DNA of 63,953 nt, the filler included, from Collodictyon triciliatum (Eukaryota): the NCBI GenBank assembly GCA_043381765.1. It is 11 parts of 11 records of this genome, joined end to end, with 100 filler letters (N's around TTAATTAATTAA, not from the genome) between each part and the next. Parts side by side here need not be neighbours in the genome. Positions count along the whole stretch, not along the records: positions 19,375 to 25,725 come from JBHJMP010004520.1; 10 more parts are not named here. One strand, 5' to 3'. Below, piece after piece: positions 312 to 57,943 of the stretch. Position numbers and translations under genes: made by a program. The notes beneath the pieces are model-generated. The model saw only the letters and a list, made by a program, of their open reading frames with translations, did not search any database and was not told where the DNA came from. Every line of letters begins with the position of its first letter. The first letter of the stretch is position 1.

Positions 312-2797
312 TTAATAGATTTCCCCCCTTGAATTACCATTTTTGCAGGAAATAAGCGCGGCTATAAGGATGAAAGCGACCAAACCAAATGCAAAATAAA
401 AAATTCCGATGGCTGCACCAAGAACAGAGGCCGTTATGTCAACCCACGATGTATAATTCCTTATATTAAATATCCCATTCCTGTACAAAAACCAATTAAA
501 GGGGATAAAAAATCTTGAGAAAAAAAGGACTGGAGTCATCTTAGAATCGTAATCGAGATGCGCCCAACATTCTCGCCTCTCGTATGTGCCCCACCGAATC
601 GCTTTCCTGAATACAATATGTACCCAATAATAGAACGACATATATGCCCTGTAAATATGTCTCAATGGAAGCAATATATTGACTGGAGCTGGAAGGGCGT
701 CTTCTTGCATTTCTAGCACAATGTCAGTGCGAACAAGGTCATATTGTCTCTTCGAGTCGACAATCACCTCCTCGTACTTATGGCTGAGTACTGCTATTAA
801 AAGGTTGATGAGAAGGATGTTGAACATAAACAAAAAGCCAAAATAGAGGGCAGGACCGAGAACTGGACTCGCCGTCTCGATATCTTGAAATTCGAGGCCA
901 CCAAACATAAGAGAGATGAAACTGTAACCAACATCTACGCCACTGGACATAGATATAACATTCTTTCCCACAACGACATATGTTGCCGTTCCAAAAGCAG
1001 CCATAAACACAATAATAATTATAAAAAACATGATCATATCACCAAACATTTGGTAAATGATAGTCAGCAATAAACCAAATTTTCTTTGCGCTTGAAGGAA
1101 GTAAAGTATTCTTGTCCAAGAGAAAAAGTTCAGCATACTGAGAAAATGCTGCTTCACATAATCAAACCGAACTATTTTGTGATAATTTTCGAACTCCTTT
1201 GCAAATGATCTATCTCCAAACGAATGATATGGAGATAGAGTATTAACATAAATGTGTATGCCGATTGTAGTCACCAACAGCAAATTAATTGATGCATCGA
1301 TCAAATTCCATCCAGAGGTCACAAATAAGTTTATTCCCTCCTCAGCAGCTTGGTCGATTTCATGAATTAAAAATCCAAATGCGTACAACAACAGTACAAT
1401 TCCAACAAAATTCGAAGATAGATGGCTGGCATAATTTAGTCGAACAACAGTGTAAACCCTTGTTGAAATTATATTATCCCCAGAGGCAGGATACTCAATC
1501 ATTTGAACGACATATGCCAACAAATTGGCATTATCGCATGCGACCAGAATTTCAAGAAAAACAACTCTTGATTGGATATCCAGCCACCCACTATCCTGTA
1601 GCTGATTCAATCGCAATACAGCTTCAGTTTGATTGATAGGCAGATCTTCAGCAAATCCACCGCCGTGGTACCATATTCGTTGTAGACCGTAAGTGCTAAT
1701 ACCAGATAAATCATATTCGCTCTTCCAATTAAAGCTTTCAGGGTAACCATACTCGTTCTTATCTTCATGGTCTTTGTTATAAGAAGACACGCACTTTGTA
1801 TCGTTCGACAGAGGAATGCTAACACCCGGTAATGGTTGGGTTCCACAGCTGTGAATTTTCATTCGAAGCTGACGTATTCGAATCGGAGAGGACAGTCGAT
1901 AATATGATAATCTTTCAGATTCAGAGGTTCCTTGTGAAAGATTTCCATTTGTATTCCAGCCATTATACGCAGCTGGGATGAATATCCCCTCTACATAGTT
2001 GAACAGCCCATTCGATAGCAGAGGTCTATCCTCATGCTTAATATCGAAAGTATCCTCCAATGTCTTTGTGAAAAAAACTGAGGAAACTCCATCTGACAAG
2101 TTTTGGTTTGCTGTAAATATAGCCAGCGTTACAATATACATCATATAAAGAAAAAAGCAAAGATAGAAATTCCCTCTTGGAGACTTTGAAAATGTGGCGC
2201 TGTACTTGAAGAAATTAAAGACAAATCCGATCTCTTTGTCAAACATCTTGAATCTTTTCTGATGACCAGAGTGTTTTCCCGTTGTTTTTGAATTTTCGAG
2301 ATTCTCGACATCACTGCTAACCAGGTCTTCTTCATACTTACATTGGTTGAAATTTTCCTTCGAAGACATTCCAGGTCCGATGTAAACTATCTCTTCAACA
2401 TGTTCACCGCGTGAAGAGTTGCCGATCCAAATATCACTAACTTTCTTTGATACATTAGGGTTCGATAGAAAGTATTTTGCTTTAGCTTCGCGAGCCTTTC
2501 TTATGTAGTTTTCAGGTACTTCGTAGCTACCTCTTATTATTTCTGACCTTTCAGCTTCTTTTTGGATTAACTTCACAGCGTAAAAGTCAAACATTATAGG
2601 GATGCATGGATCGTTGATGGATGACTTTCGAAGCGAGTCTAGTACTCCAAGAACCCTCTCAATAGGATCTCTTGTCCGTTCATCATTTGCCACATAGAGA
2701 GGTAAGAGAGCTTCAATAAAACGGCTGAAATCACCCGGATTTCCTTCGAGAGTTAAATGCTTCAGATGTAAAATGGAGCAAAGCTCGGGTGGAAATG
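312..2797 (-). CDS. Polycystin/TRPP-like cation channel exon (PKD_channel domain), probably the 3' part of the upstream LRR gene
   Basis: 793-aa ORF with polycystin hallmarks (IRIRQLR, YHGGGFAEDL, LQDSGWLDIQSRVVFLE, WNLID, six TM segments, pore region, LLINLLIAVLS). The frame stays open upstream to a CAG acceptor at 2800-2798 and encodes an LRR (FPPELCSILHLKHLTLEGNP). Confidence 0.9.
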
Positions 2798-3046
2798 CTG
2801 TATTTTAGAATTTTAATCACGTTTGACAATAATAATAATAATAATAATAATAATAATNNNNNNNNNNNNNNNNNNNNNNNNNNNNNNNNNNNNNNNNNNN
2901 NNNNNNNNNNNNNNNNNNNNNNNNNNNNNNNNAAGCGGTATTAAAGCTCTTTTGTTTTTAACATATCATCGTATGACTTAAGAGAATGAAGGAAGTAAAG
3001 AACGAAAATAAAAGGATATGATATTTTGAATAATACGAAATCTTAC

Positions 3047-5777
3047 AAACTTCATGAATATGATACCAAACATCTGGATTTTGTGCGGGGTCGATTGAAG
3101 GGTCTTCAATTATCTCTAGTCGGTTAAAATCAAGATTCAATACATGCAAGTTAGATAGATTGCTTATAAAAGATGGAACAGAAGTAATCATATTGTGGCT
3201 GATATTTAGCTCCACTAAATCTTTCATATACTGTGTTTGCTCTGGAAAAATACGAAATCTATTTTTCGATATATCAAGTGATGTTAGTCTGGTGAGGTGC
3301 TTCGAGAAATTACTCAATATTATGATTTCTTTTTTTGAAATGTTCAATAATTTATCTCGATTTTGAAAGGAGTCCCACATAACTCCTTCAATCTTATCAG
3401 GACAGCTCAATACAATTCTATCGATATGTAGAAAAATTCCAATATTTTCTGGAATTTCTGTAAATTGATTATTTTTTACATCTAAGGTTCTTAAACTCTT
3501 CAGGTTTGCGATTTCCTGGGGAATAGATGTAAACTTGTTGGATGATATACCGAGATATTCAAGCACAGTAAGGTTTTCAATGCTTCTGGGAAAACATCGA
3601 ATGAAGTTTTCATGTAGAGATAAGCTTACTATTGATTCAAGATTCATAAATATATCAGGAATCTTATCGAGCTGGTTTCCAGATGCCAATAGAACTCTAA
3701 TGGATGAGAGATTTGAAAAACTTTTCGGCAAACTTGATATTCTGTTGTACGAAAGATTCAGTTCTGTTAATCTGATTAGACATGATATTTCTTCGGGTAA
3801 GAACGAAAGCGCGTTTCTTTCTAGGGTTAGAAATTCTAATTTAGTTACTCCCCTCAAACCAGATACCCTCTCAATCATGTTTGATTCTAGCATCAAAATT
3901 TTTAGTCTTGGAAGACTTAAAATTCCATGGAAGTCCTTAAGTTTGTTTTTCCGAAGATCAAGCTTGGTCAAACTAGTGTTTGCAACTCCATCGTAGGGTT
4001 CCTGGCTCCTTAGTGCTAAGGCTGATATACGATTGGAGCTGACGTTCAGCTGTCTTAATGTTGAAATGTAAAGTATTTTAGTGGGCAGTTCACTAATTTT
4101 ATTATTTCCCACATCAATCGAAGATATCACGGGCGAAAAAGTATTAAATGCTAATGACGTCAACTGGTTGGAAGAAAGATCGACATGTTCTAGCGACGAT
4201 AACATTTCAATGTCTTCTAATCCGTAGAGGAAATTACGGATTGCTCTCAATTCTTTCAGTTTATTTGGTAGACCAGATAAAGATTTCAGCATATTTTCAG
4301 ATACATCCACAGTAATTAATTGAGTCAAGGAGGAGATATCGTATGGTAGTCTAGTGTAATCGCATTTACGAAGGCATATTTTTGTCACATTTTTCATTTC
4401 CTTGAGGTTGTGCATAATGTGATTCGCTCCGATATTTTCAATAATATTTAAGGACCGAATATCACTATTTATTTGATGTTCAGACGAATTATGTGAATCA
4501 AAACCTGTATGTTTATTATTCATCGATAGAAATCGACAACCACGGAATGATGAACCACGGGTATGTCCCTCACTAATCATATCGTCATCGATTTCCCAAA
4601 AATCAAGGCGATTTAGAAATTTCTGCAGGGCATATGTTAAATCCAGATGTTTATTTTTTTTCAGAAGTATAATTTTTAGACTATCCAGAGCCTGAAGTGC
4701 GTCATCGATGTTCCTTAGGTCATTTTTTGTTAAATCAAAAACTTTGACATATTTAAGCTTAGGTAGCATTTCATGTGGAATTTGATGTTGTTTGTTGCCT
4801 CTCCAAGATAATTTTTCGATCCGCCCAGACAAAGATGCATGGTCAAGGTATTCTAGCGACAACTCAAGGCATTTTTTCTGATCAGTTGACTTGATTCGTA
4901 AACTTTCTGATTTGATATGGTAATAAACCGTGTATTCTACTTTATTCAGAGTATATCCATGAACTAGGCGAACATTAATTGATTTGCTTTTAGGGAGCTC
5001 CTGGAGAAGTGCACATGGATAAGGATTTCCATCCAGATTCAATTCAGACAAATATCTCAATTTGTATATACTTGAAGGAAGTTCGATAAAACAGTTGTTG
5101 CTGATGTTCAGGTGAATCAAATTTTTAAGCATAGTGATTTCATCAGGAAGTAAACTAAATCTGTTATTAGCTAACGTAAGGCGTTCCAATGAAAAAATAT
5201 CGGCCATGTTGGATATTGATGAAGCCAGGCTCGATGGAAATTCATTTGATTCAAGATGCAGCCCCTGATCTTTTATCAAGAGATTGGTCTCATCACTATC
5301 CAATTCTTGGAGGCTTTGAAGGCGTGGTTCGAAGTACATAAGCTCTAATGAGCACAGTTTTTTGCATAAAACAATACTCTTGGGGATAACTAAGGAGCGA
5401 TCTGATACAAATGACAGTTTTAGATACTCTAGACTTTTATTTGTATGCTTAAAAATAGTCTGTAAGGTTTCTAATGCAACATCTTCAGCATAAACGCGAG
5501 ATAAATTTTGCATTGATGTCAAAAGCTTGAGGTCTTGATTCTGGATACTGATGAAAGCATCGGATTCATGTGCCAAGGTACCATCTCTGGGCGAAAGACT
5601 GCTCGGTTGATTATCCTGTGCACACTGAGGCCCTTTTATTATGACAACCTGACTGTCGGAATTTCTCCCTGTAAAATCAACTAATTTTGAACTTTCTGGG
5701 CGAATTATATTTCTTCTCAACCCTGCATTAGGCAAACTACCATCTAAAGACTCCACATTTGCTGAGCGAGGAATCAT
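3047..5777 (-). CDS. Large leucine-rich-repeat exon (about 910 aa, more than 20 LRRs)
   Basis: Repeated LxxLxLxxNxLxxLP motifs throughout ORF 2958-5777. GTAAGA donor at 3046. Confidence 0.9.
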
Positions 5778-19557: not shown

Positions 19558-22365
19558 TCAACTTTAGCATTTGGGTACATATGCGAATAAAATTGAAGGT
19601 ATTGAAAAACGCAGTTTCTGCCACGAACAAAAGCCTCTTTCAAGGTAATATTATGCGAGCCATCGGATAGTGCATCCTTGACTATGTTTAAGTATAAAAA
19701 TAAATTCATTTGATACATTTTAAGTAGTAGAATAATTAATTTTTTTATTAAAAATATTAAACATAGCTAGGAGTTCCTCGTTGATTTTGGGTGAGGTATT
19801 TGTATGATAATTAGCGTACACCCCATATCCAACATTAAATCATACTAATTTCTTCCATTGTTTTCGATACCAAGGTCGCGATTACTTTCTGATTCATCGC
19901 AGGTGGAAATAAATCGGGATAAAATTGCAAAAGCTGTCTCGGATCAACATCGCTTTTCTTAAAGTTAACAAGAGCTTGATCAAAATCAAGATCGCAGTAA
20001 AATGCTATAGCTACATCTGTCATCAACTGGCAAACAACTTCGCTCTGTATGTAAAATAAGCTTAGTACATGCAGAAAAGGCTAACTTACATAGTGCATGA
20101 ATTTAACAAATAATCAAATTGTCATCACCTCAATATTTCCTTGGCTGTCAAGCAATTTTAATGCCGTGTTGTACTGCTTAAGAGAGATAGCCTCTCGCAC
20201 CTAATCAATTCGGCTTAATACCTTGAACGAAATAAAAAATGAAAATGAAAATGAAAATGAAAATGAAAATGAAAATGAAAATGAAAATGAAAATGAAAAT
20301 GAAAATGAAAATGAAAATGAAAAACCAAACTTAATTACAAACACCTCAGTAAAGGTTCACATTTGGGCTTTTTTTTTTGCCTAGGATGTAACATACTTGC
20401 ATACGAAGAGGGACCAGGGCTAAGCAAGACAGTTTTGATGATGAAAGAATATAAATAAGTTTATCTCCTGGGGCTATGGCTAGAGGAGAAGGATATGCTA
20501 TAGTCTGTAAAGTCTTCTGCTCCTCCAGTGCATATACATCAATAGCTCGATTCATGGCCGATATAACATATCCCTTCCACTCACCTAGGTTTTATTTTGA
20601 GAGGGGAAAATACCATTTATTATACGGCATGGTTTAAATCACTTTCTCAAGGTCATTTGAAAACCATACAAAATTCTTTTGGCTTTGATGAGAAGCTTAG
20701 TGGTGCTCTTGATGGTTGCCCCTTTTCAGTGCACATGACAGCTAATTCTGTTTCAGGTGCATATAAAGTGATTCAATTCTTGCTGGAGTGAAAGTAGCAT
20801 TTAAATATGGCCATTTGCCTTTCTTATTTTGATTTTGTAGAATATTACATACGTTCAAATAGATACATGAATTCATTGGTCCTTTGTATTGATTTGAGGA
20901 GAGGAGGCTTATCTGTGATAGGCTGCAGCTCCTCAATTTCTCTACTTAATGAATTCAATATGAAAAAAATTTTCTTCGTTCCAATCAATACGTAATCTCC
21001 TATGCTTGCCATGCTTAGTGCAGTATTGGTGATTGTGTATTCCTAATAATGTTTGTTAAGTTGATCTAGAATATGTTGCAAATATGATTCGATTGGTAGT
21101 AATCAAAGTGTGTTTATAATGAGAATAAAGATCATGATACATAAGCTGATAACTATGTGTTTTTGTTCTCGTTGTTTACCTGGACACATTCCATTTTTTG
21201 TTCCTTTATGTAATACTTGGAAAGTCTTTTCTTCGTGGATAGATATAAGATGATCAAGTCATCCTTCGATGTCACGGAGATACACTCAACATTCTTAATC
21301 CCGGGTGCAGTGCAAATCGGTTCAAGGGTGAGCATGTCCAGCATATGAACGTTTCCATCTGAATTATATCGATAAAGCAAATTGATAAAGCAAACCAAGA
21401 AGCAAATCAATCAAAAAAAAAAAAAGATGATGGAAATCACACAATGTCACATAAAGGAACATTAAAGACCAGTGAATATACGGAATAATAAAACAAAAGA
21501 TTGAAAATGGTAATAAATATGAGAAGAACCGCATAGGACTAAAACAGCATTTGCGCTTGGTATTGCTTCGATCCGTTCTACATTTTTCTTGCCATTGGCG
21601 AGAGAGCGCTTGGCGATAAGCATCAGCTCCGACGTTGGCAGAGTCTAAATTATAAAAATAGTAAAAAAAAAATCATTTATTGTATCCAACATAATTTAAT
21701 TCTCAGTATGAAACAATAGAATCACCATATTAAAGATTGGGCAGTGTGTGTTTTAGAAGAAAAAGAGGAAAAAGAGGAAAAAGAGGAAAAAGAGGAAAAA
21801 GAGGAAAAAGAGGAAAAAGAGGAAAAAGAGGAAAAANNNNNNNNNNNNNNNNNNNNNNNNNNNNNNNNNNNNNNNNNNNNNNNNNNNNNNNNNNNNNNNN
21901 NNGAAAAAGAAGAAGAAAAAGAAGAAGAAAAAGAAGAAGAAAAAGAAGAAGAAAAAGAAGAAGAAAAAGAAGAAAAAGAAGAANNNNNNNNNNNNNNNNN
22001 NNNNNNNNAAAAAGGACGAACTATATTATGGTAAAAAATAAAATGAAATACCGCCCCAGAAAACGATCTTTTTGTGGACACCTGCTCACGGCGATATAGA
22101 TAAATATGTGAGTCATCAGAACCCACATATATCTGTGGCTCTGTTCGCAAAACACAGTTAGTTAATACGTTAGGCGAATAGAAGTTTTTATTTATTATTT
22201 GTTGGTTTTTTTATTAATTTTTTTTTTTAAAAAAAAGGAAAGATGGGCCATAATAAATAGCTGATCGAAAAGAAAGTGGGGAATAAACCCACCAATGACG
22301 GCCAAGGAAACTCCTTTGTGAGGAAGTTGCTCGAATAGGTAGATGTTTTCGAAAATAGTTGGCAT
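19558..22365 (-). CDS. Vps39/Vam6 or TGFBRAP1-like protein (CNH domain), multi-exon, 3' truncated by the contig end
   Basis: ATG 22365 MPTIFENIYL.., IYVGSDDSHIYLY, VERIEAIPSANAVLVLC|DGNVHMLDMLTL, IDVYALEEQKTLQTI, LALVPLRMQ, FDQALVNFKKSDVDPRQLLQFYPDLFP. Confidence 0.8.
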
Positions 22366-22834
22366 GACTACAGCAAAAGATCTGGGCGTGTCCCTCCTTC
22401 TGCACCAGTATTCTGCCAAAGAAAAGAAAAAGAAAGCAATGAGCCAGAAACACACACACATACAGACAAGAGGGTATATATTTATAAAAGATGATTAGAG
22501 GTCACAGATACCAGCAGCATTTACAACCACAAGTAGCTATAGAAATCGTGGAAGCCAGCAGGAGAAAATTGTAAGACATAGAACCGGGAGGATCGGGTGC
22601 ATTGACGGGCCTTTTGTTTGTTAACTGGCTGATTCATCTTTTCACTTATTCCATCTCATTCCATCTCATTTCGTTTTTTTTTTTTTGTTTTAAAAAAAAA
22701 GCAATATTATATTTGCGAATGAAACGTTTCTTAAAATGCATTATACATCGTCATATGTTCCATCCCCCCACCCCTGTTCTCCTCTTTTCCCTTGCTCCCA
22801 TTCTTACTATCTTACTTTTCTTTTCATTTGTATA

Positions 22835-22990
22835 CTAGAAGGGGTATATCAATCGAAAGATTGATAAACCTGGTGCGCTAGTACCCAAGGTCTCACCACT
22901 TTTTTTAAACAAAGGTTGCGTAGCATCGAAGGCTGCCAGGAAAGACCCGACAGCCTATTATTCTAGAGGAAGGTGTATGCATATTTTGAA
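22835..22990 (-). ncRNA. Putative Fanzor omegaRNA scaffold / element 3' end
   Basis: Three consecutive hairpins at and after the Fanzor C-terminus (22931-22955, 22871-22898, 22843-22870), ending in CTAG at 22838-22835. The position matches TnpB/Fanzor omegaRNA organisation. 5' boundary uncertain. Confidence 0.6.
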
Positions 22991-24889
22991 GAATGGAAAG
23001 AACTTTCTTGAGTATTTTATTAGCGCTGTTAAAGTCCCTTGTCAAGGATACACTTTGTTTGCTTTCTGAGCGATTGCATTCTTTACATATGAGATATCTA
23101 TACACTTTTTTTTTGTATTTCCTTTCAGTGTCATGTATCCCAGTTTCTTTTCGCAGTTGCGACACATCTTGGAGATTCTAAATTCAACTACACTAACTGC
23201 TTCAAAACGTTTGGATAGTATTTTTCGTAATCCTCTTCCGATTGCTGGCATAAAATAGTTTCAACTGACATTTTCTGCTCCAGTATCCATACGCCAGTAC
23301 AACATCCCGCCAAATGTCTTTTCGATTCGGTCCATAAACAATTCTTCACTTCGTTTTGTATTATCATATTGTCTCCATCTCATCTTTCGAAAAGTTACTT
23401 GTTCATACAATTTAGATAATTCTCTCTGGTATCTTGATTTCATAGATACTTATTTTCGAAATTTTTCATAATCGACAGCGTATGAATTATGTTTACTCAA
23501 TTCTGTCTCTAAATCGATGAAAGATACTCTTGATGTCTCAAACGGCTGATTCTCTTCAAAAAACCTGGAATAAAAGAAACAGCACTTTGTAAACATGTTG
23601 CCGTGCATATCCCTGAAGCTTCGTACTTTTCTTTTTTTCTCGCACAAGAGTATTTTGTGATTTTAAAGAGATTTGCTATCATGTATTGTTTGGTGCCGTG
23701 TAACGTGATTTCTTACCTGTCTCATCCACCATGTAAACCAAATATACTTGCCTGCGTCCACTCAAACTATTTTTTTTCGCTAATAAAGATAAATGCTCCT
23801 CGAAACTTCATCTATATAAACATATTCTTGAGGTTTTTTTAAATTGGATTTCGAATTTGAAATACCTTTCTTCTCAAACAATAATGACACCGTCAAGCCG
23901 TCTGTTTGTATCATGTACTTGAAATTGTAATCCCTTTGATGAAACCCCTTTTCTTCGTTTCAAAGAACTTATCCCATAGTTTCTCTTTGCGTCTTGATAT
24001 ATTCTTCAGTAATAATGTTTTCCAGATAATACTAATAGACCTATCTAACATACAGCATCTAGAGTAATATGACATGGTATATTGTCAGTTCTTTCAGAGA
24101 TTGGTTGAAACAGTTTGGTACCAATGTCCTCAAAAATGGGATTCATGTAAATCAGACATGGAATGTGCTTATTTGGATTGGCTTTGGCATCATATTCGAT
24201 ACCTTTTACAATATCGCTGGGAATGATATGATGCAAATGCGTTGTAGCCCATCCTTATATTGTTCCAGTATTTCGAGATTCTTGAAGATGGCTTTTTTTT
24301 TTTAACTTTTGTAACATTGCCTTTTTAATAGCTTCCGTAACATTCTCATCTTTAGGTACTGTTTGATTTATAAAGCGCAGTAACCTCTTTGCAAAATGCT
24401 CCTCAATGCTATTATGATAAGCTGTTAACATTTGATTCGCCAAGTACGGTAATACGCGAGACAGTTCAACCAACCGAGAGCATTCTTCTCGGGACAAAAG
24501 GAATCGAAAATCATTGAGATAAAAAGTCATCATGTCTTTACTCATTTCTGTTTTTTTTTTTTTTTTTTAATTTTTTTTTTTTTTTTAACTTGTGGGTCTA
24601 TCTTGTGGAACTATTCCAACTTTCTTTAAAGCGTACAAAAAAAACATTTCATCGATTGTTGGGAGTTGTTGTAATTTCAATATGTAACATCTTGCAAACA
24701 GATAAGTGTTGTAACCAAGTTATGACACAATGAAATCGTATCGTTGATTTTGTCATAGTTATCCGCATTCTTTGCAATCGACTTTAGATATGTTTTCACA
24801 TTTCGATAGTCTGGTTTAACATATTTTATATTCTCATACCCAAGACGTTTTCTTTTCTTTATCTGAAAATTTTTGGTTTACTTTTTCAT
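22905..24889 (-). pseudogene. Fanzor1 (eukaryotic TnpB-related RNA-guided endonuclease), disrupted by stops and frameshifts
   Basis: Fragments in order: KKRKR..VKTYLKSI, YLFARCYIL..LPTIDEMFF, YLANQMLTAYHNSIEEHFAKRLLRFIN, KLFQPISERT..HITLD, IQTDGLTVSLLF, RuvC-I IV*VDAGK (D 23756-23758), ETELSKHNS..DYEKF, RKMRWRQY, VLAYGYWS, MPAIGRGLRK, RuvC-II VEFRISKMCRNC (E 23183-23185), CKEC, RuvC-III TRDFNSANKI (D 23034-23036). Confidence 0.9.
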
Positions 24890-25630
24890 TTAGAAAATCT
24901 ACCTAGTTTTCAAATTTAATAAAACTTAAGTCAATCTGTCAATTTAATAATAATAAAAATAATAATAATAATGAAAAACTGCATAAAATCAATTTATGTA
25001 AAATTAAGCATCTACCGAGACTCTCAAAATATGCACATTGTGGCAAACAAACACACATAGTTTTTTTAACAAGTGATTTGAGACAAAACGCTGAGAACCG
25101 ACTCGGCGAGTTCGAAAGGACGGCCGTATAGCAATTGTGATTGAAAGTTAACATATCGGCCCAAACAACATGATTACCGCCGCAAGTGTGGATAGTATGT
25201 TTTTTTGATATGCATGTTTGGTGACAGGTTTATAGGGTGGGTTCTGTCGGGGCCAAGGCAAGGGCTTGTTTGTCATTTTTTGAATTTTAATGATAATATT
25301 GCATAAATGAAAAATAATATAATTGATTATATGAATATAATGAGATTATAAAGTATTTTTTAAACTTATTATATACTAATCATACTATTATATTATTCAG
25401 GTTGTTTCTTGGATTCACCAAAGCTCCTGCTTTTGTCAATCCATATTTAATTCGATGGTTTTTTTGTGCAATAAACGGCTTTATATGGGTACACCTTCGC
25501 TGTATAAAAAGTGTTGTGCCTTGAAGGCGTAAAACCAAGTTTCTCACAACCCCTGCAATGAAGTTTATCCATTTACAGGCTGAATGAGAACGAATAGAAA
25601 GGAAAGAAAAAGTTTAAGAAAAGAAAAAAG

Positions 25631-25674
25631 AACATCTTCATCATCCTGCACAAAATTGAAAGGAAGAATAAAAA
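25631..25674 (+). mobile_element. Third copy of the retrotransposon 3' end
   Basis: AACATCTTCATCATCCTGCACAAAATTGAAAGGAAGAATAAAA, flanked by AAGAAAAGAAAAAAG at 25616-25630 and 25675-25689. Confidence 0.65.
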
Positions 25675-26009
25675 AAGAAAAGAAAAAAGAAAAAAGAAAA
25701 AAGAAAAAAGAAAAAAGAAAAAAGANNNNNNNNNNNNNNNNNNNNNNNNNNNNNNNNNNNNNNNNNNNNTTAATTAATTAANNNNNNNNNNNNNNNNNNN
25801 NNNNNNNNNNNNNNNNNNNNNNNNNATCTTTTTTATCTTTTTTATCTTTTTTATCTTTTTTATCTTTTTTATCTTTTTTATCTTTTTTATCTTTTTTATC
25901 TTTTTTATCTTTTTTATCTTTTTTTATCTTTTCTTCTTTTCTTTTCTTTTATCTTTTATCTTTTTTTTCTTTTTTTTCAACCGTAATCAAATAGAATTTA
26001 TCGCAATAG

Positions 26010-28556
26010 ATGAGACTCTCCCGAATGGCGGCAATATTCTTTTGCCGACTAATTCATGCGGCCTTGCCCTCGATTTGATTGAGATTCTGAGCAATCAGAT
26101 AGCGCAAAGAGCCTTTCCGGTCCGTAAATTATTCAAATTTGGGATATGAAATATATATAATGCATCTTATTCCTTGCAAAATTGTCAGCTTCATCAATTT
26201 TCAATCTTACTTCAATTTAAAGAAGGACAGTTTCACGTTTTGCATGCACATGAATTATAAAAGTAATTAGAAAATTACTTTAGTATATGATTTATTTTGT
26301 TTCTCCGTCCGCAAAAGGAGTTCTGGAGTATGGAAATATACTAGGAGAATGGTGAAAAAAAATTTCGAAGAATTGCTTGCTTTTATATCAATCCCATTTC
26401 ACAAAGATACGTAATAGGGACAATCTCCCAGCATACTCTTCACTCTTCTGCTGTATATCAAAATAATTCAAGACAACATTATTGTTTCATATTTGCAATA
26501 AATTAATTTAATCTACCTGTTACCGCAAATGAAAACATAGGCTTGCGCCCGTCAAAAGAGATAGGATATACCTACCCGGACCTCCATTTTACTACAAAGA
26601 ACTCATCAAACTAGGAATACTAGAGTGTGTTCCGGAAATCACCTCAAAGTTTGCCTCGAAAATGAAGGTGACCCGAAACTATCAAATATCGGCTTTACAA
26701 GTCAAAGATTCCTTTCGATGACATGTTGGGTCTTATGATATGAAACTTCATTTTACATTCCTAACATGTTTAGGAGCCTTGTATTGTGATAACCGGCCAT
26801 CCCAGTCTTCGCTTCGGGGAAGTGATTCATTTTATAAACATGTGGAAAAATAAGCGGGAAAATACACTTATAATCACAGGTTAAATATCTTTATAAAAAT
26901 TTTAAACGTCATGATTTTGTATTATATAAAAGCTATACACAAAAGGATTATAAAAGAATTACCTGTGATTTCTCTAACAAATTAAAAAGTACAGAATTAT
27001 GATGTCATTTTAAAAAAATTAATTTTATTAGATTCTGATTATGATTTCCACACTGCTGTATCCGCCCACCAACCTATGAGCATGAAGGCTGTATATTGCC
27101 CCATCGACACCCGAGTCAACTTTGTTGAAATGACATCCCTCATCCAAAAAATTGATACAAGTGATATATTTGTTCCAAATTCATATCTGGACGAATCCAT
27201 GGGGTCAGTTTGTGTATCTTTTAACGAAGAAAATGGTGATACAATCACAAATATGAATTGATATGAGAAATTATCATAGCTATACGCGTATTCACAGCTG
27301 GGTTATCTTTTCGTTGTTGTTGTTGTTGTTGTTGTTTGGTTTTTTTTCTGTCCCTAGGCCACAACGCTCCTTCGCCCCGCATCCAAAGTTGAAAGGATTT
27401 TCCTCGAACTTGGGACTTTCTATTCCCCTGAAGAGAAAGTATGAAAAAGCATTTGTAGCTCCAAAGGTTTGCTGAATGTCGTCCCCGTGTATATGCACTT
27501 GATTCTGAAGTGTTTTTTTTTTTATTATTTGATGATTTGATGCGAAATAAAAAAAAGGCTACAATTATTTTCGACCATTTAAATTATTTTGGTTTTGGTT
27601 TTGGTTTTGGTTTTGGTTTTGGTTTTGGTTTTGGTTTTGGTTTTGGTTTTGGTTTTCGCTTTTGTTTTCATTTGGCATTTCGCTTTTGATCGAAAATCAA
27701 TCTTCTGTTTGTATTTTGATAATTTTGCTCCATTTCTCTCTCTGCAGTTGGCTCAGTCCATCGACTTGGAATCTGTCTCAGAGACAGAGTGTCTTGGGGC
27801 AGTCAAAGGATTACTTAAGATTAAACACAGCCAGTTTTACATCGAACCAAATCAGCCTGGCATCCAGCATCCTGTCACTGTAATTGATGTGATAATAATA
27901 ACACTACTATACCCCTATCATGATATATATATATTACTCTCCTGTGGATGCTTTCGGTTCACTTAATATTTGGAAGGTTGAAAAAAAAATTAAGGAATGA
28001 AAATATTGTTGACCAATCAGAAATCAGATGGACATTATTTATATGGGAAATTATCCGTTTTTTCAATTTCAGATTACCTCAGTCAAGTGAGTTCTATCAT
28101 ATTATTAAGATTCTTTTCAACAGCCTTTAAATGCTTTATTGCAACATGTACCCCTTTTTTTTAAAAAAAAAAATCACTTTTATTAAGATGACATGTTTGC
28201 TTGATTGTTTTTCAAAAGAGAAAAATTAAACTCAATTGCTGCAACAATCGATTTATTGTTGTTGCCGCCTTAAACAACTTGGGGTTGATTCATATCGTTT
28301 TCCTCTTTTTGTTAATTAGAAGACAGGCCTCCATTACCAAGTGGAAAACCGAAAAGGCGAGTTCGAAGCGACCATTAAAATTCGAGACTGGCGCGCAGAA
28401 ATACGCATCCACCCAACGAATCCGATTCAGATTGAATGTGATGGTTCGCTTGCAAATCTTGTCGAATGCCAAAGGTTGGTGCGCTCCCTTTTGTCGCCGT
28501 CTCTTGGCCAGCATGCAAAAGCACATAGAAGCGAGCTACAGAGTGCACCTGAATAA
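26010..28556 (+). CDS. INTS9: Integrator complex subunit 9 (beta-CASP family), 3' part, multi-exon
   Basis: Exons: NGGNILLPTNSCGLALDLIEIL, YFVSPSAKGVLEYGNILGEW, RIYLPGPPF, PCIVITGHPSLRFGEVIHFINMW, HQPMSMKAVYCPIDTRVNF, IPLKRKYEK. Last exon ends at 28556. Confidence 0.9.
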
Positions 28557-29064
28557 ATGAATTGTAAGGGAAAGCGGAAGAGAAAGAAAGAATCGATGAG
28601 AGAAAGAAGAAGAAAAAAAAAAGAGAGAGAGAGAGAGCCGAAAACAAATACAAAGTCATGCATTTTGGCTGTTTGAATTATTCTGAAGAAAAAATTGAAG
28701 AGATTAAAAGATACTTGCCATACAGAGGATTGGATAATTGTGATTATGACAACGATGCAGATAAACATGAAAGAAATAAAAGTGTTGAAATCGTACAAAT
28801 CTCTTTCATTAGAAATCACAGGGTATTTAACAGCGCAAATAAATCTAGAAAAAGAAAAGTAATAATAAACAGGTACACAAAGGAGGTACTCAGATAGAAT
28901 GGGGCGGAATAAATCCACTTGATTTATTTTAAATTATATAGACAACCGTATGACAACGCTGAACGAGACGGGAAGAAAAAGAAGAGTCAGGAAACATACA
29001 TATTTCACATGCTTTTCTGTTACATTTCCGTTGCATTCCTGTTGCTACAGCTACTAAAGTAACT

Positions 29065-29083
29065 GATGATAATGATGATGATA

Positions 29084-29123
<40 letters not shown>

Positions 29124-29172
29124 CGATGATGATGATAATCATAATAATAATAATGGTGATGAAGATGATGAT
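29065..29172. repeat. (GAT)n/(AAT)n microsatellite
   Basis: Directly visible. Confidence 0.9.
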
Positions 29173-29179
29173 GGTTTTC

Positions 29180-31117
29180 TCATCCTTTCTTGCGCCTCCT
29201 CTCACTGGAGACACGCCTCCAGTCCTTTTTGCTCTTTGCCTGCCTCCCATTGACCGCTTCAACCGCACCCACAGCTCCTGAATGCGGCTCTGGCCTGCAC
29301 GAGGCAACTGTAAACTCGGACCACATGAGCGACGCATTGTTCTTTGCAGGAGAGTCTGGCGGACTGACAAGGAGACCCTTCCGCAGCCTCTTCAAGGCAG
29401 CCTCCTCCCGGCCCTCCCAGGCAGAGCTGTCCAAGCCGCCGGACACTCTCAGATCCGAGGACGGGATATCGGCCAGATCCACGGGCTCCAGGACAGCCTG
29501 ATACATCTGCCGGATGCGACGGAGATGGAAGACGTCGGGCAGAATCTTGTCGAGGGGATACGACAGGGCCTTGGCAGCAACCATCATGTGCAGACAGGCA
29601 GCGACCCGCGGCGAAGAGGCGTCCTGCAAGCCGCCGGCAAACGGCGCGGCCTCTGTGCCCGAAGCGCATGTGCCGCTGCAGCTGCATCGCAACCTGCCGA
29701 GATGGACCGAGAAGCGGGCGGGGCCGACAAGGACGTAGGCAGCCTCGGACGAGACCGGCGCCACCTCGAGCGACCTGCCCGGGAAGAGATCCGCACCCAG
29801 CACGCGGAGAATCTCGTCTGCAACGGCCTGCCCGGGCGCGTAGACGCGGACGCTGCGGCGGTGATGCTCCGTCTGGACGTGGCGAAGCAGCTCAAAGACC
29901 ATGTCGAACCACCCGAGCGCGGCAACGCGGCCCAGGAGACGCGGGACACTCTCGTCGGCGGGCAGCAGAGCATGGAGCAGGACGGCGCGCTTTGCCGGCA
30001 CAAAGGCGGCAGCCCAGAGCCTCGGGTCGAGCTCGCACGCGGCGTCCCACGTGTCGGGCCACTTGAGGCGGAGCTCCTCTGCGAGCGCGGCATACTCGGG
30101 GGCGGACGCGGCGAGGGCTGCGCGGTGCAGGAGCGCAGAGGCCTCCGGCGTCGTGTGCCGGGAGAGAAGCGCGAGAACCGCGTCCCACGCGTAGACATGC
30201 GCGCACTCGGGCAGGACGCGGGCGGCGGCGGCAACCAGCGCTTTGGGGCGGGCAGAGACGAGCGCGACATCCGCCCAGGCGTGGAAGCCCTGCGCCCCGG
30301 CCTCTGCCCGCAGCGTCCTGAGGAACCACGCCCACGTCTCGGCCGTTGCTGCGCCGCAGACCGCCGCAAAGCACACGACCGCCGCGCGCCCTTCGCCGTC
30401 GGCCCCGGCCGCAAGCAGCAGCGTCCCGCCCTTCGCCGTCTGCGCCGCCGCCTCCCACAGCCGCACGAGCGGCAGCCCCAGCCGCAGATACGCCCCGCCC
30501 GTCGCCGGCTGCACAAACGCCCGCCCAAACGCCTCGCCGCCCGCCACAGCCGCAGCCGCAGTCGCAGTCGCGTCCACAAACGCCGCAGACCCGGGCATCG
30601 CCGCGCATATCCGCTCGCACAGCCCCGGCAGCAGCCGCACATCGCCGCCCCCGCCCGCCATGGCCCCCGGCCGCTCCGCCAGCAGCTCCTGCACCCCGCG
30701 TCCGACGCCGCTGCCCACGTGGATGCCGAAGCGCCGCCCGAAAAAGTCGCGGATTTGGCGCACCGTCATCCCCGTCGTGGCCGCAAACGCGCTCTCGGCC
30801 TGCAGCGACTTGGCCAGCCAGTGCTTGTCTGCCGGGCACAGCCGCCTGTGCAGCTCCGGGTCGCACGTGTGCTGCTTGCAGACCGCCGTCAGGACAAGTC
30901 CCTGCTGCGTCCCTGCTCGTCGCCCAGTGATGCGGAAGCTGCAGTCGAGCGAGTGGCACCCCACTGAGTACAGGTTCGCTTGCGAGTAGTGCACCCGCGG
31001 GGTTCGGTTCGTGAGCACGCAGTGTGTTGTGATCGCTTCCTTCAGCTCCTCCACGCTGCTGAACTCGGCCCCAACTTCGATCACCGGCTCGTAGTTCGTC
31101 TGTGTTGTCTCCCCCAT
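29180..31117 (-). CDS. MuDR/MULE transposase-derived protein with SWIM zinc finger, catalytic residues altered
   Basis: Intact intronless 645-aa ORF: IEVGAEFSSVEELKEAI..C..C.FRI..HTC (MuDR DNA-binding domain), GGTLLLAAGADGEG..FA..ETWAWFL (MULE domain), CSC..CLH (SWIM). Confidence 0.85.
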   Translation of the reverse strand: MGETTQTNYEPVIEVGAEFSSVEELKEAITTHCVLTNRTPRVHYSQANLYSVGCHSLDCSFRITGRRAGTQQGLVLTAVCKQHTCDPELHRRLCPADKHWLAKSLQAESAFAATTGMTVRQIRDFFGRRFGIHVGSGVGRGVQELLAERPGAMAGGGGDVRLLPGLCERICAAMPGSAAFVDATATAAAAVAGGEAFGRAFVQPATGGAYLRLGLPLVRLWEAAAQTAKGGTLLLAAGADGEGRAAVVCFAAVCGAATAETWAWFLRTLRAEAGAQGFHAWADVALVSARPKALVAAAARVLPECAHVYAWDAVLALLSRHTTPEASALLHRAALAASAPEYAALAEELRLKWPDTWDAACELDPRLWAAAFVPAKRAVLLHALLPADESVPRLLGRVAALGWFDMVFELLRHVQTEHHRRSVRVYAPGQAVADEILRVLGADLFPGRSLEVAPVSSEAAYVLVGPARFSVHLGRLRCSCSGTCASGTEAAPFAGGLQDASSPRVAACLHMMVAAKALSYPLDKILPDVFHLRRIRQMYQAVLEPVDLADIPSSDLRVSGGLDSSAWEGREEAALKRLRKGLLVSPPDSPAKNNASLMWSEFTVASCRPEPHSGAVGAVEAVNGRQAKSKKDWRRVSSERRRKKG

Positions 31118-32289
31118 GGGCCTGGCGTTCGTTTAAATTAGTGCATTTGTTTTGTTTTATTTTTTTCTGGTTTATCCTTTTCATTTTCTTTCCTTAGTTT
31201 ACTTTGTAGATTTGTTGTTGTTGGAATCGCGTCAAGACTTTGACAGACATCGCGGTGGCGGTCGAGTGAGGCGCTGCAGCTTGGCAGCCAGATTCATCTG
31301 CACATCTGATTCGCTGTGTTTCGGCTGCAGGTACCGTACTCTTTATGTGTCTGTCTGATTGTGGAAGATACGTTTTCCGTCGCTTTTGTACTGTTTGCGA
31401 GGTGGCACTGGGGAAGTCTTGTTAGTGTCCTTGAGCATTATTTTGTCTAGATTGGATGTAACTCCACAGCATCGCAAACCCGGCTAGAGGTTGGCGAGAC
31501 TTACACATGTCCATCACCCTCTTTGCCCGAAGGCTCTGAGTCGTGGACACGTGCGTGCGGCGCCTCGCTGCTGCAGAGCCCTTTTCACAGTTGGTTTACT
31601 CAGGTTTTGACGCACTGTCCTCATCGACTGTCCTTTCCTTGTGGAATCAGCAATCTCGGCACCACAACAACCCTGAGATGACTTAAGCATGCTTGTCATA
31701 AGAACAACTTTCCATTAATCTGTAATTGTTTTCTTATTGGCTGGAGTTTGCGTGTGTTGCTGATGGGTGCTATATTTCGACTTCCACTTGTGGGTTGGCA
31801 CTTGTTTTGCAGTTTGCACAAATGGAACGTTGAAGTTTGTAGCTGCTGGGTAGCATGAGTATCGATACTCTTTGTATTAATTGTAGATACATTATGCATA
31901 ATTTATTTATAAGTGCGATTTTATAAGGCTCAATTAATCGATGGATACAAAATCATTTATATTCCATATCTGAAATAACGGTATTTGAGTGCTTTGCGAA
32001 TGCAGATCGAAGCTCATCGCGCCCATCAAATCATTTCCCAGCGAGGAAAAAAAGAAAAAAAAGAAAAAAAAGAAAAAAAAGAAAAAAAAGAAAAAAAAGA
32101 AAAAAAAGAAAAAAAAGAAAGAAAAAAAGAAAGAAAAAAAGAAAGAAAAAAAGAAAGAAAAAAAGAAAGAAAAANNNNNNNNNNNNNNNNNNNNNNNNNN
32201 NNNNNNNNNNNNNNNNNNTTAATTAATTAANNNNNNNNNNNNNNNNNNNNNNNNNNNNNNNNNNNNNNNNNNNNAATTTTTTTTATTTC

Positions 32290-33256: not shown

Positions 33257-33270
33257 ATATATGTTGTTGC
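32290..33270. repeat. Long imperfect inverted repeat (arms about 430 bp, spacer about 110 bp)
   Basis: The left arm (about 32290-32720) is the reverse complement of about 32835-33270, including poly(T)/poly(A). Differences are mostly 1-nt indels. Confidence 0.9.
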
Positions 33271-33409
33271 ACATACAAAATCTTTTTTTCCAAAAGAAAA
33301 AAAAATCAATCAAACAAACGACTCATGTTGGGGTTGTGCTTTCCATAGCAAAAGTGTGAAGCAAAGTATTGCGTTATTGATGTCTTGGATTACTTTTTTT
33401 TTTTTTATC

Positions 33410-51785: not shown

Positions 51786-53687
51786 ATGAATACTTTACCC
51801 TCCACCTTCATTTTCATTTTTCTTCGATCTGCATTTGTGATATACTTTTTGGGTACCTTCACTACCCAAGCCCAAACCTTTACTTTTTCCGATACTTACC
51901 CCACCAATAACGTGGATAGCCTCGAAAATTGGCTAAAAACCCACCCGCAGCCGACGCAGGAACGGCTGAAAAACCTGATACGGTTAAAAAGAACCTATTT
52001 TTTTTCGTACCCTGAACGAATAAATCGCGATACGCTCGAAATGCGCCAACTATCCCAACGGCTCAATCAGCCTGTGGGAAAGGCAATTGTCACCTTCTGG
52101 AAAAGTAACAACTTTAATGAGCTATACCAAGTGTTTAAAACATTTGAAGCCCTCAAAGATACTTCGGGTACGGTCTACACCCTTTCGGGTTTGGCTTCCT
52201 CCAATTACACAATTAATGCGTTGGACAAAGGCGATAAATACGCCGCGCAGGATTTTCTACAAAAAGCCCGTCAATTGTTGAAGGCGCGTTTTAATGCTCA
52301 CGATTATTTTATTCTTGAAAGGGCTTTGTTGATGCATCAACTCAGTACGGACGAAAGCAACCTTAAAGAACATTTAGCATCGCTTCAAAAAGCCCTTGCG
52401 CTATCCAAAAGCAAGCCTGAGTACGAATACATACGGATAACACTCAAAAGTTTTATTGGTACTGTTCACGGATATCAGGGCGACTACGCCACCTCTTATG
52501 CTACCTTCAAAGAACTTTTAACCCAACTCAAGCCCGACCAAACCGAGGTAAATCTTCTTCTTTCTCAAAACTTAGCCATGGATTGTGAGGAATTGGGACG
52601 CTACGACGAACGGTTGGCTTTGTGCAACAAAATAGCTGTCTTGCTGCGTAACTATTCCAAAAAAAGCACTCCTTATTTCTTTTTGACGCTATACGAAATG
52701 ACCAAGGAGGAAATGGATCGACGTGGGCGTTACCAAGAAGCATCTGCTTATGGTGACAGCATCGCCACCATGAAGGATATTATCTATGAAAAACAGCGCA
52801 AGGAAAAACTGATTGAATTTCAAGCCCAAAATAAACAAACGCAAATAGCCGAACTTACTTTTCAGCAAACCCAAACCGAAAAGCGCAATCTTTTAATTAC
52901 CTTTTTTTTGATGGCGGCATTGGCCGCGGCCGCGGCGTTGGGCTATTTGGGCTGGCGCTTACGACAATCAAACGCCCGCCTCAATGCGCTCGTATTGCTG
53001 CGCGATGAGTTTATCCGCATCATTGCTCATGATCTGCGCCGCCCGCTGCACGCCTTTTACGGATTGAGTGAGGTATTTGGTAAGCTGCTCCAGCGCGGTG
53101 ACCAACAGGCCATCGTTAAACTCTCACAGTCTATTGACCAATCGGGGCTGTACATCCGTCAAATGCTCGACAATCTGCTTTATTGGGCATTGTCCCAAAA
53201 AGGAAAGTTAGTATTCAGCTCTTCTGCCTTTGCCCTTCACCCCCAACTAGCGGCTCTGGTTTCGGTTTACGGAGCCGTTACGGCCATTAAAGGAGTCGCC
53301 CTGGAGTATGATTGTCCCCACAACCTAATGGTCTGCACCGATGTTAACGCCTTGGACCTTATCCTGCGCAATCTCATTGACAACGCCACCCAACACACTT
53401 CTGCGCAGGGCATTATCCGCCTTGAAGCAACCCCTTCAGCAGATCCCGAACAGGTATCTGTCCGAATCAGTGATACCGGCAAAGGAATGACGGAAACGCA
53501 ACTGCAATTGGTAAGGGAGGTATTAACTGCTCCCCAACGGTTTCAACCCAAACAGGAAAACCTGGGCTTGGGCCTTATTGTTGTCAGCACGTTTGCCCAG
53601 CAGGCGGCGATTGCAATAACTGTACAAAGCCAAGAAGGAGCAGGAACCATATTTGAGATCAATGTGAAACGCGCATCTCAGGGGTAA
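51786..53687 (+). CDS. Bacterial sensor histidine kinase (helical periplasmic sensor, TM, HisKA, HATPase_c)
   Basis: IIAHDLRRP (H box), LDNLLYWA, ILRNLIDNA (N box), ISDTGKG (G1), GLGL (G2). Likely start is ATG 51786. Confidence 0.92.
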   Translation: MNTLPSTFIFIFLRSAFVIYFLGTFTTQAQTFTFSDTYPTNNVDSLENWLKTHPQPTQERLKNLIRLKRTYFFSYPERINRDTLEMRQLSQRLNQPVGKAIVTFWKSNNFNELYQVFKTFEALKDTSGTVYTLSGLASSNYTINALDKGDKYAAQDFLQKARQLLKARFNAHDYFILERALLMHQLSTDESNLKEHLASLQKALALSKSKPEYEYIRITLKSFIGTVHGYQGDYATSYATFKELLTQLKPDQTEVNLLLSQNLAMDCEELGRYDERLALCNKIAVLLRNYSKKSTPYFFLTLYEMTKEEMDRRGRYQEASAYGDSIATMKDIIYEKQRKEKLIEFQAQNKQTQIAELTFQQTQTEKRNLLITFFLMAALAAAAALGYLGWRLRQSNARLNALVLLRDEFIRIIAHDLRRPLHAFYGLSEVFGKLLQRGDQQAIVKLSQSIDQSGLYIRQMLDNLLYWALSQKGKLVFSSSAFALHPQLAALVSVYGAVTAIKGVALEYDCPHNLMVCTDVNALDLILRNLIDNATQHTSAQGIIRLEATPSADPEQVSVRISDTGKGMTETQLQLVREVLTAPQRFQPKQENLGLGLIVVSTFAQQAAIAITVQSQEGAGTIFEINVKRASQG

Positions 53688-54243
53688 TCCGTCTGAAACA
53701 CCGATTTTTTCAGGCATTTTTCACTGACAGATATGAGTTGCCCGACTCTTTTTCTCTTCACATTCAACCACCGACACACCCTTTCCGTTTAGAAAGAATG
53801 ACGACAATTGGACGAATGTGCTTTCATTGATCGGTATCCTGCACAGGGCTTCAGCAATAAAAACCTGCTTTAAAAAGATTTGAACAGCGCTCGATACTGT
53901 CTCACAAGGGGCAGTTATTGAGCGCTGTCACAATGAATGCACCGGACGGTTCAACGGTCATTACCCGCGTTTCCATTGCCCTGTGTATTGATGCTGCAAA
54001 CTCCTCAATATCCGGGTGCCCATCCGCTTTCCTGCTCCCGAATTCTTCCGGCCACACTCTTTAGCATGGCTTTTGTTATCCTTTTATGCACTCAAAAAAT
54101 ATCCTTACTCAGCCGCTTCCCTTGGCAGTTCTTCCGCAAATCACTACAGGTTATCACCAAATTGGCACATAAATACTGCCCCTTGCACGAATGTTGATTA
54201 CCGGTTGGAATATCAATATCACATGATCACTGATTGTACATCT

Positions 54244-57200: not shown

Positions 57201-57943
57201 CGTAAAAGTTGATGTTGTAAGTAAAGGAGTAGGACAATCGGAACCGGCTGTCGGCTGCACCGGTAGCGGCACAGCTACAATGACTGTTCTAAATGGCAAC
57301 ACCGCCGACAGCATCTATGTAGAAGCTATTTATGAAAACGGCAATCCCAGCCCAACCATCACGTTCAAAGATGCGGCGAACAATAATTACATAGCCAATA
57401 GATTTGAAATTGGAAATGGCGAATACGTTTACCGTACCAAAATACCCGCCACCACCGGTATTTCTACCACCGACAATACCCAATTCTGCAAATTACAATC
57501 GTTAGTGGCTTACGTGTTCCGTAAACAAACAGGTTTTGCTTCGGTAGGCTTATACACTTGTGCATCAGGCAATGAAAACAGTACGACAACACTCAACCTT
57601 GCTTTGCCAACGCGCACCTCTAATTCTAACATTACAGTGTGTGTTCCTATTTCTGAACTTTCTAACGATGGTCGCCCATTACAAATTAGGGTTACAGCGG
57701 GTGCAATAGTCAAAGATACGACCATTACAGGTTCAGACCCGGCCACAGGAACATGTTGTGTAGCAACCCCTAAGTTTACACTCAATGATGTCCTTCCGGG
57801 TACTTCTGCCATAAAAGTAGAATTGATCTCTCCTACTAATGGACAATCGTTTGTAGCAGGTGCTTTTGCCAATATTCAATGTGAGACATGCACACCGCCC
57901 GCGCGTTTGGTAAGTGCCACCGACCCAACCTGCACCGTAGCGG
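54244..57943 (+). CDS. Large secreted SdrD B-like domain protein, Bacteroidetes type, 3' truncated
   Basis: Signal peptide ..SMSAFS-QVSGTVFRDFNGNG, IEIGNRIWKDTDKDGIQDAGEVGVNGVEIELY, Thr/Cys-rich Ig-like repeats. Start codon uncertain. Confidence 0.88.
56641..57160 (+). repeat. Two tandem 87-aa (261-bp) repeats within the SdrD-like protein
   Basis: CVKPNAGTDQAPTCVGNTAITTATLAATAV.GGAWTQ..GVYQFIWATS.TCSDTVKITIPNC occurs twice. Confidence 0.9.

Follow-up and report, generated by a model that had tools for sequence, protein, structure and literature searches.

The 63,953-nt stretch of Collodictyon triciliatum DNA analysed here (the window) carries the right end of a decayed Fanzor1 element, and its minus-strand segment from about position 22966 to 22834/5 most likely represents what is left of an omegaRNA scaffold (probability roughly 0.55). 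Fanzor proteins are eukaryotic RNA-guided DNA cutters. As knowledge of their guide RNAs dates back to 2023, one decayed example adds little, and the feature in the window is most likely an ordinary, decayed representative of a known kind of element. In the proposed layout, a hairpin of very high stability covers the end of the nuclease ORF and is followed by the stop codon, 70 nt of non-coding sequence holding a second strong hairpin, and a short CTAG-containing tail that would close the fold. In working copies, the RNA would be transcribed together with about 15–20 nt of flanking DNA (in the window from 22833 downward), and the Fanzor protein would bind it as a guide for the cleavage of matching DNA beside a short motif. 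The window copy is unable to make its own protein; supply from other copies is conceivable. The positions of all features are listed in Table 1.

Table 1. Features of the Fanzor1 element and of its 3' end, in window positions.
Feature	Position	Strand	Description
Fanzor1 gene, full-length but broken	22905..24888	minus	putative start near 24888; stop codon TAA at 22907-22905
Candidate left-end region	24900..24912	minus	TTGAAAACTAGGT; likeness by eye to AAAACTA(C/T) of the relatives
CTAGAA	22961..22966	minus	nested partner of the terminal TTCTAG (22840-22835) in the MFE structure
Hairpin 1 (H1)	22955-22931	minus	GGCTGTCGGG-TCTTT-CCTGGCAGCC; 10-bp stem, 11 bp with the flanking A-U pair
Hairpin 2 (H2)	22898-22871	minus	TGGTG...CACCA with inner ACC/GGT and ACTAG at 22882-22878; weak
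Hairpin 3 (H3)	22870-22843	minus	GGTTTATCAATC-TTTC-GATTGATATACC; 11 pairs and a T.T mismatch in a stem of 12 positions
Tail after H3	CTAGT at 22838-22834	minus	CCTTCTAG (minus-strand reading)
Element right end	22834..22842	minus	terminal CCTTCTAGT; scaffold probably gives way to guide after G 22835 or T 22834
Candidate guide source	22814..22833	minus	ATACAAATGAAAAGAAAAGT; flanking DNA, placed from the boundary and the S. punctatus Fz1 transcripts

A full-length but broken Fanzor1 gene

Judged by its sequence, the gene is a full-length Fanzor1 pseudogene and dead, since blastx against the best full-length match (P0004, 634 aa) covered residues 2–617 of that protein in four pieces over 24856–22932, the conserved motifs are spread over different frames, and the reading frame is broken by several in-frame stops and about seven changes of frame. 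The longest open stretch has 96 codons, whereas the relatives have 590–700. The read-through translation of 24021–24560 (minus strand) matched PDB 9CER, the Fanzor1 of Guillardia theta (GtFz1), with an E value of 2.7e-9 and 39.4 bits (query residues 47–226 on chain residues 502–694), and a second frame gave a match at E 0.066 on the RuvC part. When the read-through translation was searched against 1.84 billion representative proteins, 299 homologues were obtained at E ≤ 1e-3, 53 of them at E ≤ 1e-10. The GtFz1 match, the homologues and the coverage of P0004 identify the ORF as a Fanzor1 relic, in support of the original interpretation.

The motifs RuvC-I (VDAGK), RuvC-II (VVEFRISK), CxxC...CxxC (CRNC...CKEC) and RuvC-III (RDFNSAN) are legible in the translation and align with D372, E530, and R580-D581, residues that are invariant in 30 relatives. 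The translation of the pseudogene contains the RuvC D...E...D triad, with a C4 zinc finger preceding the RD; Bao and Jurka reportedly gave the motif as D-X-[TS][TS]-X-X-[C4]-X-RD. Searches of Pfam and NCBIfam with the ORF pieces and three read-through frames gave no match near threshold, word-indexed protein searches with the N-terminal part and with the 86-aa C-terminal ORF gave no match, and a search for a second copy within the window returned low-complexity matches only. Two long poly-A runs at 24545–24600, in the N-terminal part of the pseudogene, hold two in-frame stops; read depth was skipped there as repeat. The window copy exceeds its relatives by about 34 codons in the region of roughly 23510–23615.

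The right end of the element and its copies

A search of public sequencing runs listed four holders with a small share and no RNA holder. Contigs of four public runs (X1–X4) were placed on 22600–24700 at a likeness of at least 80%, which yielded 393 (X1), 101 (X2), 243 (X3), and 11 (X4) contigs. Those of X1 are spread over likeness classes (28 at 99% or more, 90 at 95–99%, 165 at 90–95%, and 110 below 90%), which indicates that the family is multi-copy. The X1 depth per 71-nt bin decreased from 169 at 22884–22954 to 21.7 at 22813–22883 and to 0 at 22742–22812; depth in the last of these bins was 0, 0, 1.5, and 0 in X1–X4, respectively. The first X1 record, a contig of 385 nt, fits the window from 23087 to 22834 with its letters 1–253 and continues with 132 letters that do not fit, so that similarity is lost at a sharp boundary with unrelated flank beyond it; the position of this boundary to the base rests on this one bridging contig among the contigs listed. 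The scaffold had been predicted to end near 22835, and both the loss of similarity in the bridging contig at 22834 and the drop of X1 depth to 0 agree with that position. The distance from the stop codon to the element end is 70 nt, as compared to 45–105 nt in the relatives.

The flanking DNA adjoining this boundary (Table 1) would supply the guide if the RNA were made, a prediction that follows from the boundary at 22834/5. According to the account of S. punctatus Fz1 in PMC10432273, transcripts extend 14–15 nt beyond the conserved scaffold. The placement of the element end to the base fixes the would-be guide and offers a handle for collecting further copies from the host.

Other contigs contain single-base insertions or deletions at 23257, 23307/8, 23742, and 24017, which match frame-change sites of the window copy. 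This coincidence suggests that better-preserved copies probably exist in the same runs, or that assembly errors occurred at those sites. As other copies are free of several of the indels of the window copy, the protein could come from elsewhere, and the seemingly better-preserved family members could be a source of a working pair of nuclease and RNA. Some X1 contigs skip or replace 90–240 nt within the gene (23476–23717, 23743–23866) and are thus variants of the family with internal deletions or replacements.

A candidate for the opposite end of the element was recognised upstream of the gene (Table 1). A search for terminal inverted repeats around the element found microsatellite matches only, and the CTAG at 24906–24903 was rejected as an inverted-repeat partner of the terminal CTAG, with 5 of 10 bases in common by eye. 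Microsatellite blocks with N runs flank the element at 21740–22100 and 25660–25980 and are the source of the sole "inverted repeats" there. Islands of elevated G + C content (up to 0.59) are located at 28000–32000 and 52000–58000, the rest of the window having 25–39% G + C.

Hairpins and predicted fold of the 3' end

Direct reading of the minus strand recovered all three hairpins that had been named before at their coordinates, along with the unpaired ACTAG and the terminal CTAGT, and confirmed that the latter two are complementary. H1 is GC-rich and sits inside the last ~17 codons of the Fanzor1 ORF, at a distance of 97–121 nt from the element end, and H3 lies in the 3' untranslated part of the gene. 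Folded as RNA, the minus strand of 22815–22990 (176 nt) has a minimum free energy (MFE) of -45.7 kcal/mol, as compared to a mean of -34.0 (sd 3.9) for shuffled sequences (z = -2.96), and 2 of 200 shuffles fold equally well. Single hairpins were ranked against 20,594 sampled 30-nt windows from the minus strand of the whole 63,953-nt window. H1, at -19.7 kcal/mol, is the most stable of all (fraction at least as stable 0.0000), and H3, at -12.1 kcal/mol, ranks in the top 0.46%. H2 is no better than chance at -6.7 kcal/mol, a value equalled or exceeded by 6.9% of the sampled windows. The base-pair probabilities follow the same order, being 1.0 for H1, 0.86 on average for H3, and 0.3–0.4 for H2, although the last rises to 0.58–0.74 if the RNA ends at 22834. 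Counting hairpins with at least 10 pairs brought no information, since the minus strand has 120 and 20 Markov simulations average 115; the count was dropped for matching the random expectation, energies being used in its place.

The original prediction had also described the stems as better preserved than the ORF. This is unsupported: the bridging contig is about 81% alike across both, with 44 other letters and 5 gaps in 254 nt. A diverged copy in X3, represented by a loose end before 22964, has kept the loop and the five visible pairs of H1 with three one-sided changes, which is weak evidence.

The motif CTAG occurs three times in the 161 nt of 22830–22990, where 0.2 occurrences are expected from the background rate of the window (76 in 62,335 called bases), corresponding to a local enrichment of about 15-fold (Poisson P ~0.001). 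Two ways of closing the fold make use of these motifs. In the MFE structure, the 3' terminus forms a nested CUAGAA/UUCUAG helix that encloses all three hairpins and whose probability is 0.70–0.99 if the RNA ends at 22834 and 0.19–0.27 if 20 nt of flank are added; the putative scaffold would begin at about 22966. The fold proposed originally was an omegaRNA closed by a pseudoknot between ACUAG (22882–22878) and CUAGU (22838–22834), as in TnpB. The complementary bases for such a closure are indeed present, the three CTAGs are far above expectation, ACUAG is partly unpaired in the ensemble (0.41–0.99 with the RNA cut at 22834), and PMC10432273 describes a pseudoknot as common to TnpB and Cas12 guide RNAs. 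However, the pseudoknot would comprise only 5 bp, its ACUAG strand is a loop within the weakest of the three hairpins, and when the two pairings were compared by duplex energy it reached a weak -3.1 kcal/mol versus -4.3 kcal/mol for the nested helix, which claims the same terminal bases. The relatives, too, close their 3' terminus with a nested helix and not with a pseudoknot (six-helix structure, 65 sequences; see below). Moreover, the solved SpuFz1 complex contradicts the earlier premise of a closing pseudoknot in Fanzor omegaRNAs, its omegaRNA being described in PMC10432273 as having no pseudoknot of the TnpB type. Thus, the complementarity of ACTAG and CTAGT stands, but the nested helix is the thermodynamic favourite for the closure, and the pseudoknotted fold is very unlikely.

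A structured 3' RNA in intact relatives

An alignment of seven sequences was used as query in scans of metagenome contigs, from which 80 of 519 relatives were kept (L001–L080), and of IMG/VR, from which 80 of 424 were kept (L082–L161); many of the latter are named giant-virus MAGs. The ORF is intact in 78 of the 80 metagenome loci and in all 80 viral loci, and the closest intact protein relatives of the window gene share ~30–39% identity with it. In every subgroup of this giant-virus and aquatic-metagenome clade, nucleotide conservation runs 45–105 nt beyond the stop codon and then stops abruptly after GGTGTAA, a motif that is exact in 68 of 78 metagenome and 71 of 80 viral loci. The upstream genes in six loci that were checked encode a PIF1 helicase, a DUF5710 protein, an ORF without a family match, a kinase, a patatin, and a DEAD helicase. 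Because flanks and upstream genes vary between loci, the loci represent independent insertions of a unit of ~2 kb. On the other side of this unit, conservation sets in at AAAACTA(C/T), ~50 nt ahead of the start codon, and no terminal inverted repeats are evident.

The structure of the conserved 3' region was assessed on 65 sequences. From 78 sequences, ten without the exact end motif were removed, of which L003, L008, and L056 were restored because they are clear variants; removal of five exact duplicates and of L034, which has extra inserted hairpins, gave the final set. RNAalifold predicted 22 pairs for this set, 16 of them with compensatory changes. A six-helix structure of 33 pairs, which was written by hand, is paired at 87.9%, compared with 43–53% when the partners are slid, and has a covariation score of 0.313 versus 0.085–0.14 for the slid versions. 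None of 500 shuffles matched the six-helix structure on four of five measures, and 35 of 500 matched its count of further pair types. Examples of this RNA are located at L012:4736–4901 and L001:3338–3503. In two loci, L084 (3866–3948) and L086 (3809–3904), translation stops 82 and 95 nt, respectively, before the element end, as compared to 45–46 nt in close relatives, and the sequence is kept all the same. Retention of sequence past these early stops argues for constraint on RNA or DNA there and not on protein. Based on the conservation past the stop codon, the covariation, and these two loci, the lineage has a structured RNA that lies over the ORF end and reaches the right end of the element, and in this the RNA resembles the published omegaRNAs of Fanzor1.

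The covarying RNA of the relatives also bears on whether the 3' end of the window copy ever had a role in guiding or transposition. The hairpins could be features of an mRNA 3' end that act in stability or termination, or chance palindromes, and 22834 could be the mere end of a repeat family. Such a view would account for a pseudogene whose second hairpin is at chance level, whose strand carries no more hairpins than random expectation under the lax count, and whose 3' end has no homology to modelled omegaRNAs in Rfam or in two models built for this analysis (see below), but it leaves aside that the most stable 30-nt hairpin of the whole strand and a further one ranking in the top 0.46% are found no more than 125 nt from the end of an element with a gene for an RNA-guided nuclease, at the very place where intact relatives have kept a covarying RNA. 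We regard it as distinctly improbable, and a relic scaffold as the better explanation of this arrangement.

With its cleanly covarying 3' RNA and near-invariant GGTGTAA end, the giant-virus clade is ready for a covariance-model search. Some loci of the clade show peculiarities of their own. L034 (2485–2636) has ~151 nt between stop codon and GGTGTAA, versus 75–80 nt in its subgroup, and contains extra inserted GC-rich hairpins. Seven loci (L013, L016, L026, L027, L032, L047, and L053) have a common coding tail upstream of the left end, lysine-rich and of the form ...EYA.RAYL.KK..., which may reflect a preferred insertion site or be part of a larger unit, and the upstream ORF in L043 (1175–2509) ends in a DUF5710 domain. 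In L018 (606–2514 with 2922–4815) and L017 (641–2558 with 2688–3978), a second long ORF on the same strand lies beside the Fanzor ORF; these may be tandem copies.

Comparison with known guide RNAs

The sequence of the window stretch was compared with modelled RNAs and with the 3' ends of the relatives. R1, a covariance model built from the 65 sequences, gave 25 matches at E ≤ 10 across the whole window, the best with E 0.16 at 33263–33379, and R2, built from the 11 closest sequences, gave 26 matches in 20000–27000, the best with E 0.87 elsewhere; no match of either model fell on 22815–22990 of the minus strand. Rfam at gathering scores had 0 matches. With blastn and nhmmer, the 3' region of the window matched the ends of the relatives in the coding part only, and a search of viral contigs with P0002 as query found no closer relatives. 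The pattern of H3 had 0 matches in viral contigs and one chance match, to Lysinibacillus, among genome contigs. Homology of H1, H3, and the linker to the helices P1 and P3 of the viral clade was considered and rejected, as R1 and R2 miss the region. The look-alike words GTCTTTC, AAAAAGT..AGACC, and ATCAAT..ATTGAT.TAC were discounted as signs of homology because they lie at different distances from the end. The stretch is thus without detectable homology to an omegaRNA described in Rfam or modelled by R1 and R2.

This qualifies the proposal that the element has an omegaRNA-like 3' end. The proposal holds in so far as the structured stretch is on the strand of the nuclease gene, overlaps its last codons with H1, and runs 70 nt past the stop codon with H2 and H3, and in so far as relatives have a covarying RNA at this position; it fails where homology to modelled omegaRNAs is concerned. 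Since the protein of the host copy is recognisable while its RNA misfits the model of the viral clade, scaffolds would seem to diverge fast relative to the protein.

Compared with the RNA of the viral clade, the window stretch has the same arrangement of a helix over the last codons, a stop codon, a non-coding part (45–105 nt in the clade), a helix that closes the terminus, and an abrupt end. The lengths to the end are also similar, amounting to ~145 nt in the window (from the TPSS codons) and ~153 nt in L001 (from the RPxxF codons). In contrast, the clade ends in GGTGTAA and the window in CTAG(T), and the clade has five or six helices as opposed to the two strong ones of the window.

Likewise, the Fanzor1 omegaRNAs of SpuFz1, GtFz1, and PpFz1 are on the nuclease strand, overlap or follow the 3' end of the ORF, and end at the right end of the transposon with variable flank beyond; a position at or overlapping the ORF 3' end and a reach to the transposon right end are reported for Fz1 omegaRNAs in PMC10432273 (Saito et al., 2023). 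The candidate scaffold in the window measures ~130 nt with two to three stem-loops and falls within the published range of 75–150 nt and two to four stem-loops given in PMC11423790 (Xu et al., 2024). It differs in that its first stem has 10–11 bp, whereas SL1 has 7 bp in all three solved Fanzor1 complexes according to the same source (PMC11423790), in that the window copy is a pseudogene, and in the lack of detectable sequence or structure homology.

The omegaRNAs (reRNAs) of TnpB in IS200/IS605 elements such as ISDra2 offer a more distant parallel, as they too derive from the right end of the transposon, overlap the nuclease ORF, and take their guide from the flank. They are prokaryotic, however, and the pseudoknot that is a defining feature of the TnpB omegaRNA fold corresponds in the window to a 5-bp possibility with a better nested alternative. 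A far-reaching version of the scaffold reading would be that the host carries an active multi-copy Fanzor1 family with its nearest intact relatives in giant viruses and a rebuilt guide RNA whose first stem is long and rich in GC, with one more stem and with the CTAG palindromes as its closure, which may be a TnpB-like pseudoknot. This is speculative and has a slim chance of being correct; if true, a pseudoknot would be seen for the first time in a Fanzor1 omegaRNA, and guide RNAs would have turned over between the lineages of virus and host.

Likeness to Helitron ends

The terminal hairpin and CTAG could also be a DNA signal for a mobilising transposase, for example the 3' end of a Helitron, with the Fanzor gene as its passenger and no RNA scaffold involved. 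Helitron1 elements are characterised by one 3'-subterminal hairpin and by 5'-TC and CTRR-3' ends and are known to carry Fanzor1 genes, as described in PMC3627910, and Helitron insertion between AT or TT is described in PMC10288648. The window has matching features: H3 is a subterminal hairpin that ends 4 nt (CCTT) before CTAG (22838–22835), a terminus of the CTRR type, the next base is T (22834), and the similarity of the bridging contig runs through this T and then stops, as expected of a conserved target base. The ~15-fold local enrichment of CTAG would fit as well. The resemblance is incomplete, however, as H3 is AT-rich and is separated from CTAG by those 4 nt only, and no 5'-TC end preceded by A or T (A-TC or T-TC) is evident by eye over the ~70 nt that precede the ORF start. 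The ends of the relatives (AAAACTA... and ...GGTGTAA) are unlike those of Helitrons. Furthermore, a Helitron end leaves H1 unexplained, the strongest hairpin, which lies 97–121 nt from the end and over the coding tail, as in omegaRNAs. In the exclusive form that denies any RNA scaffold, this explanation is therefore unlikely, albeit with some chance of being right. In TnpB systems, the transposon end is both a DNA signal and part of the RNA; since transposon ends serve both roles there, the Helitron and the RNA readings of the window can both hold.
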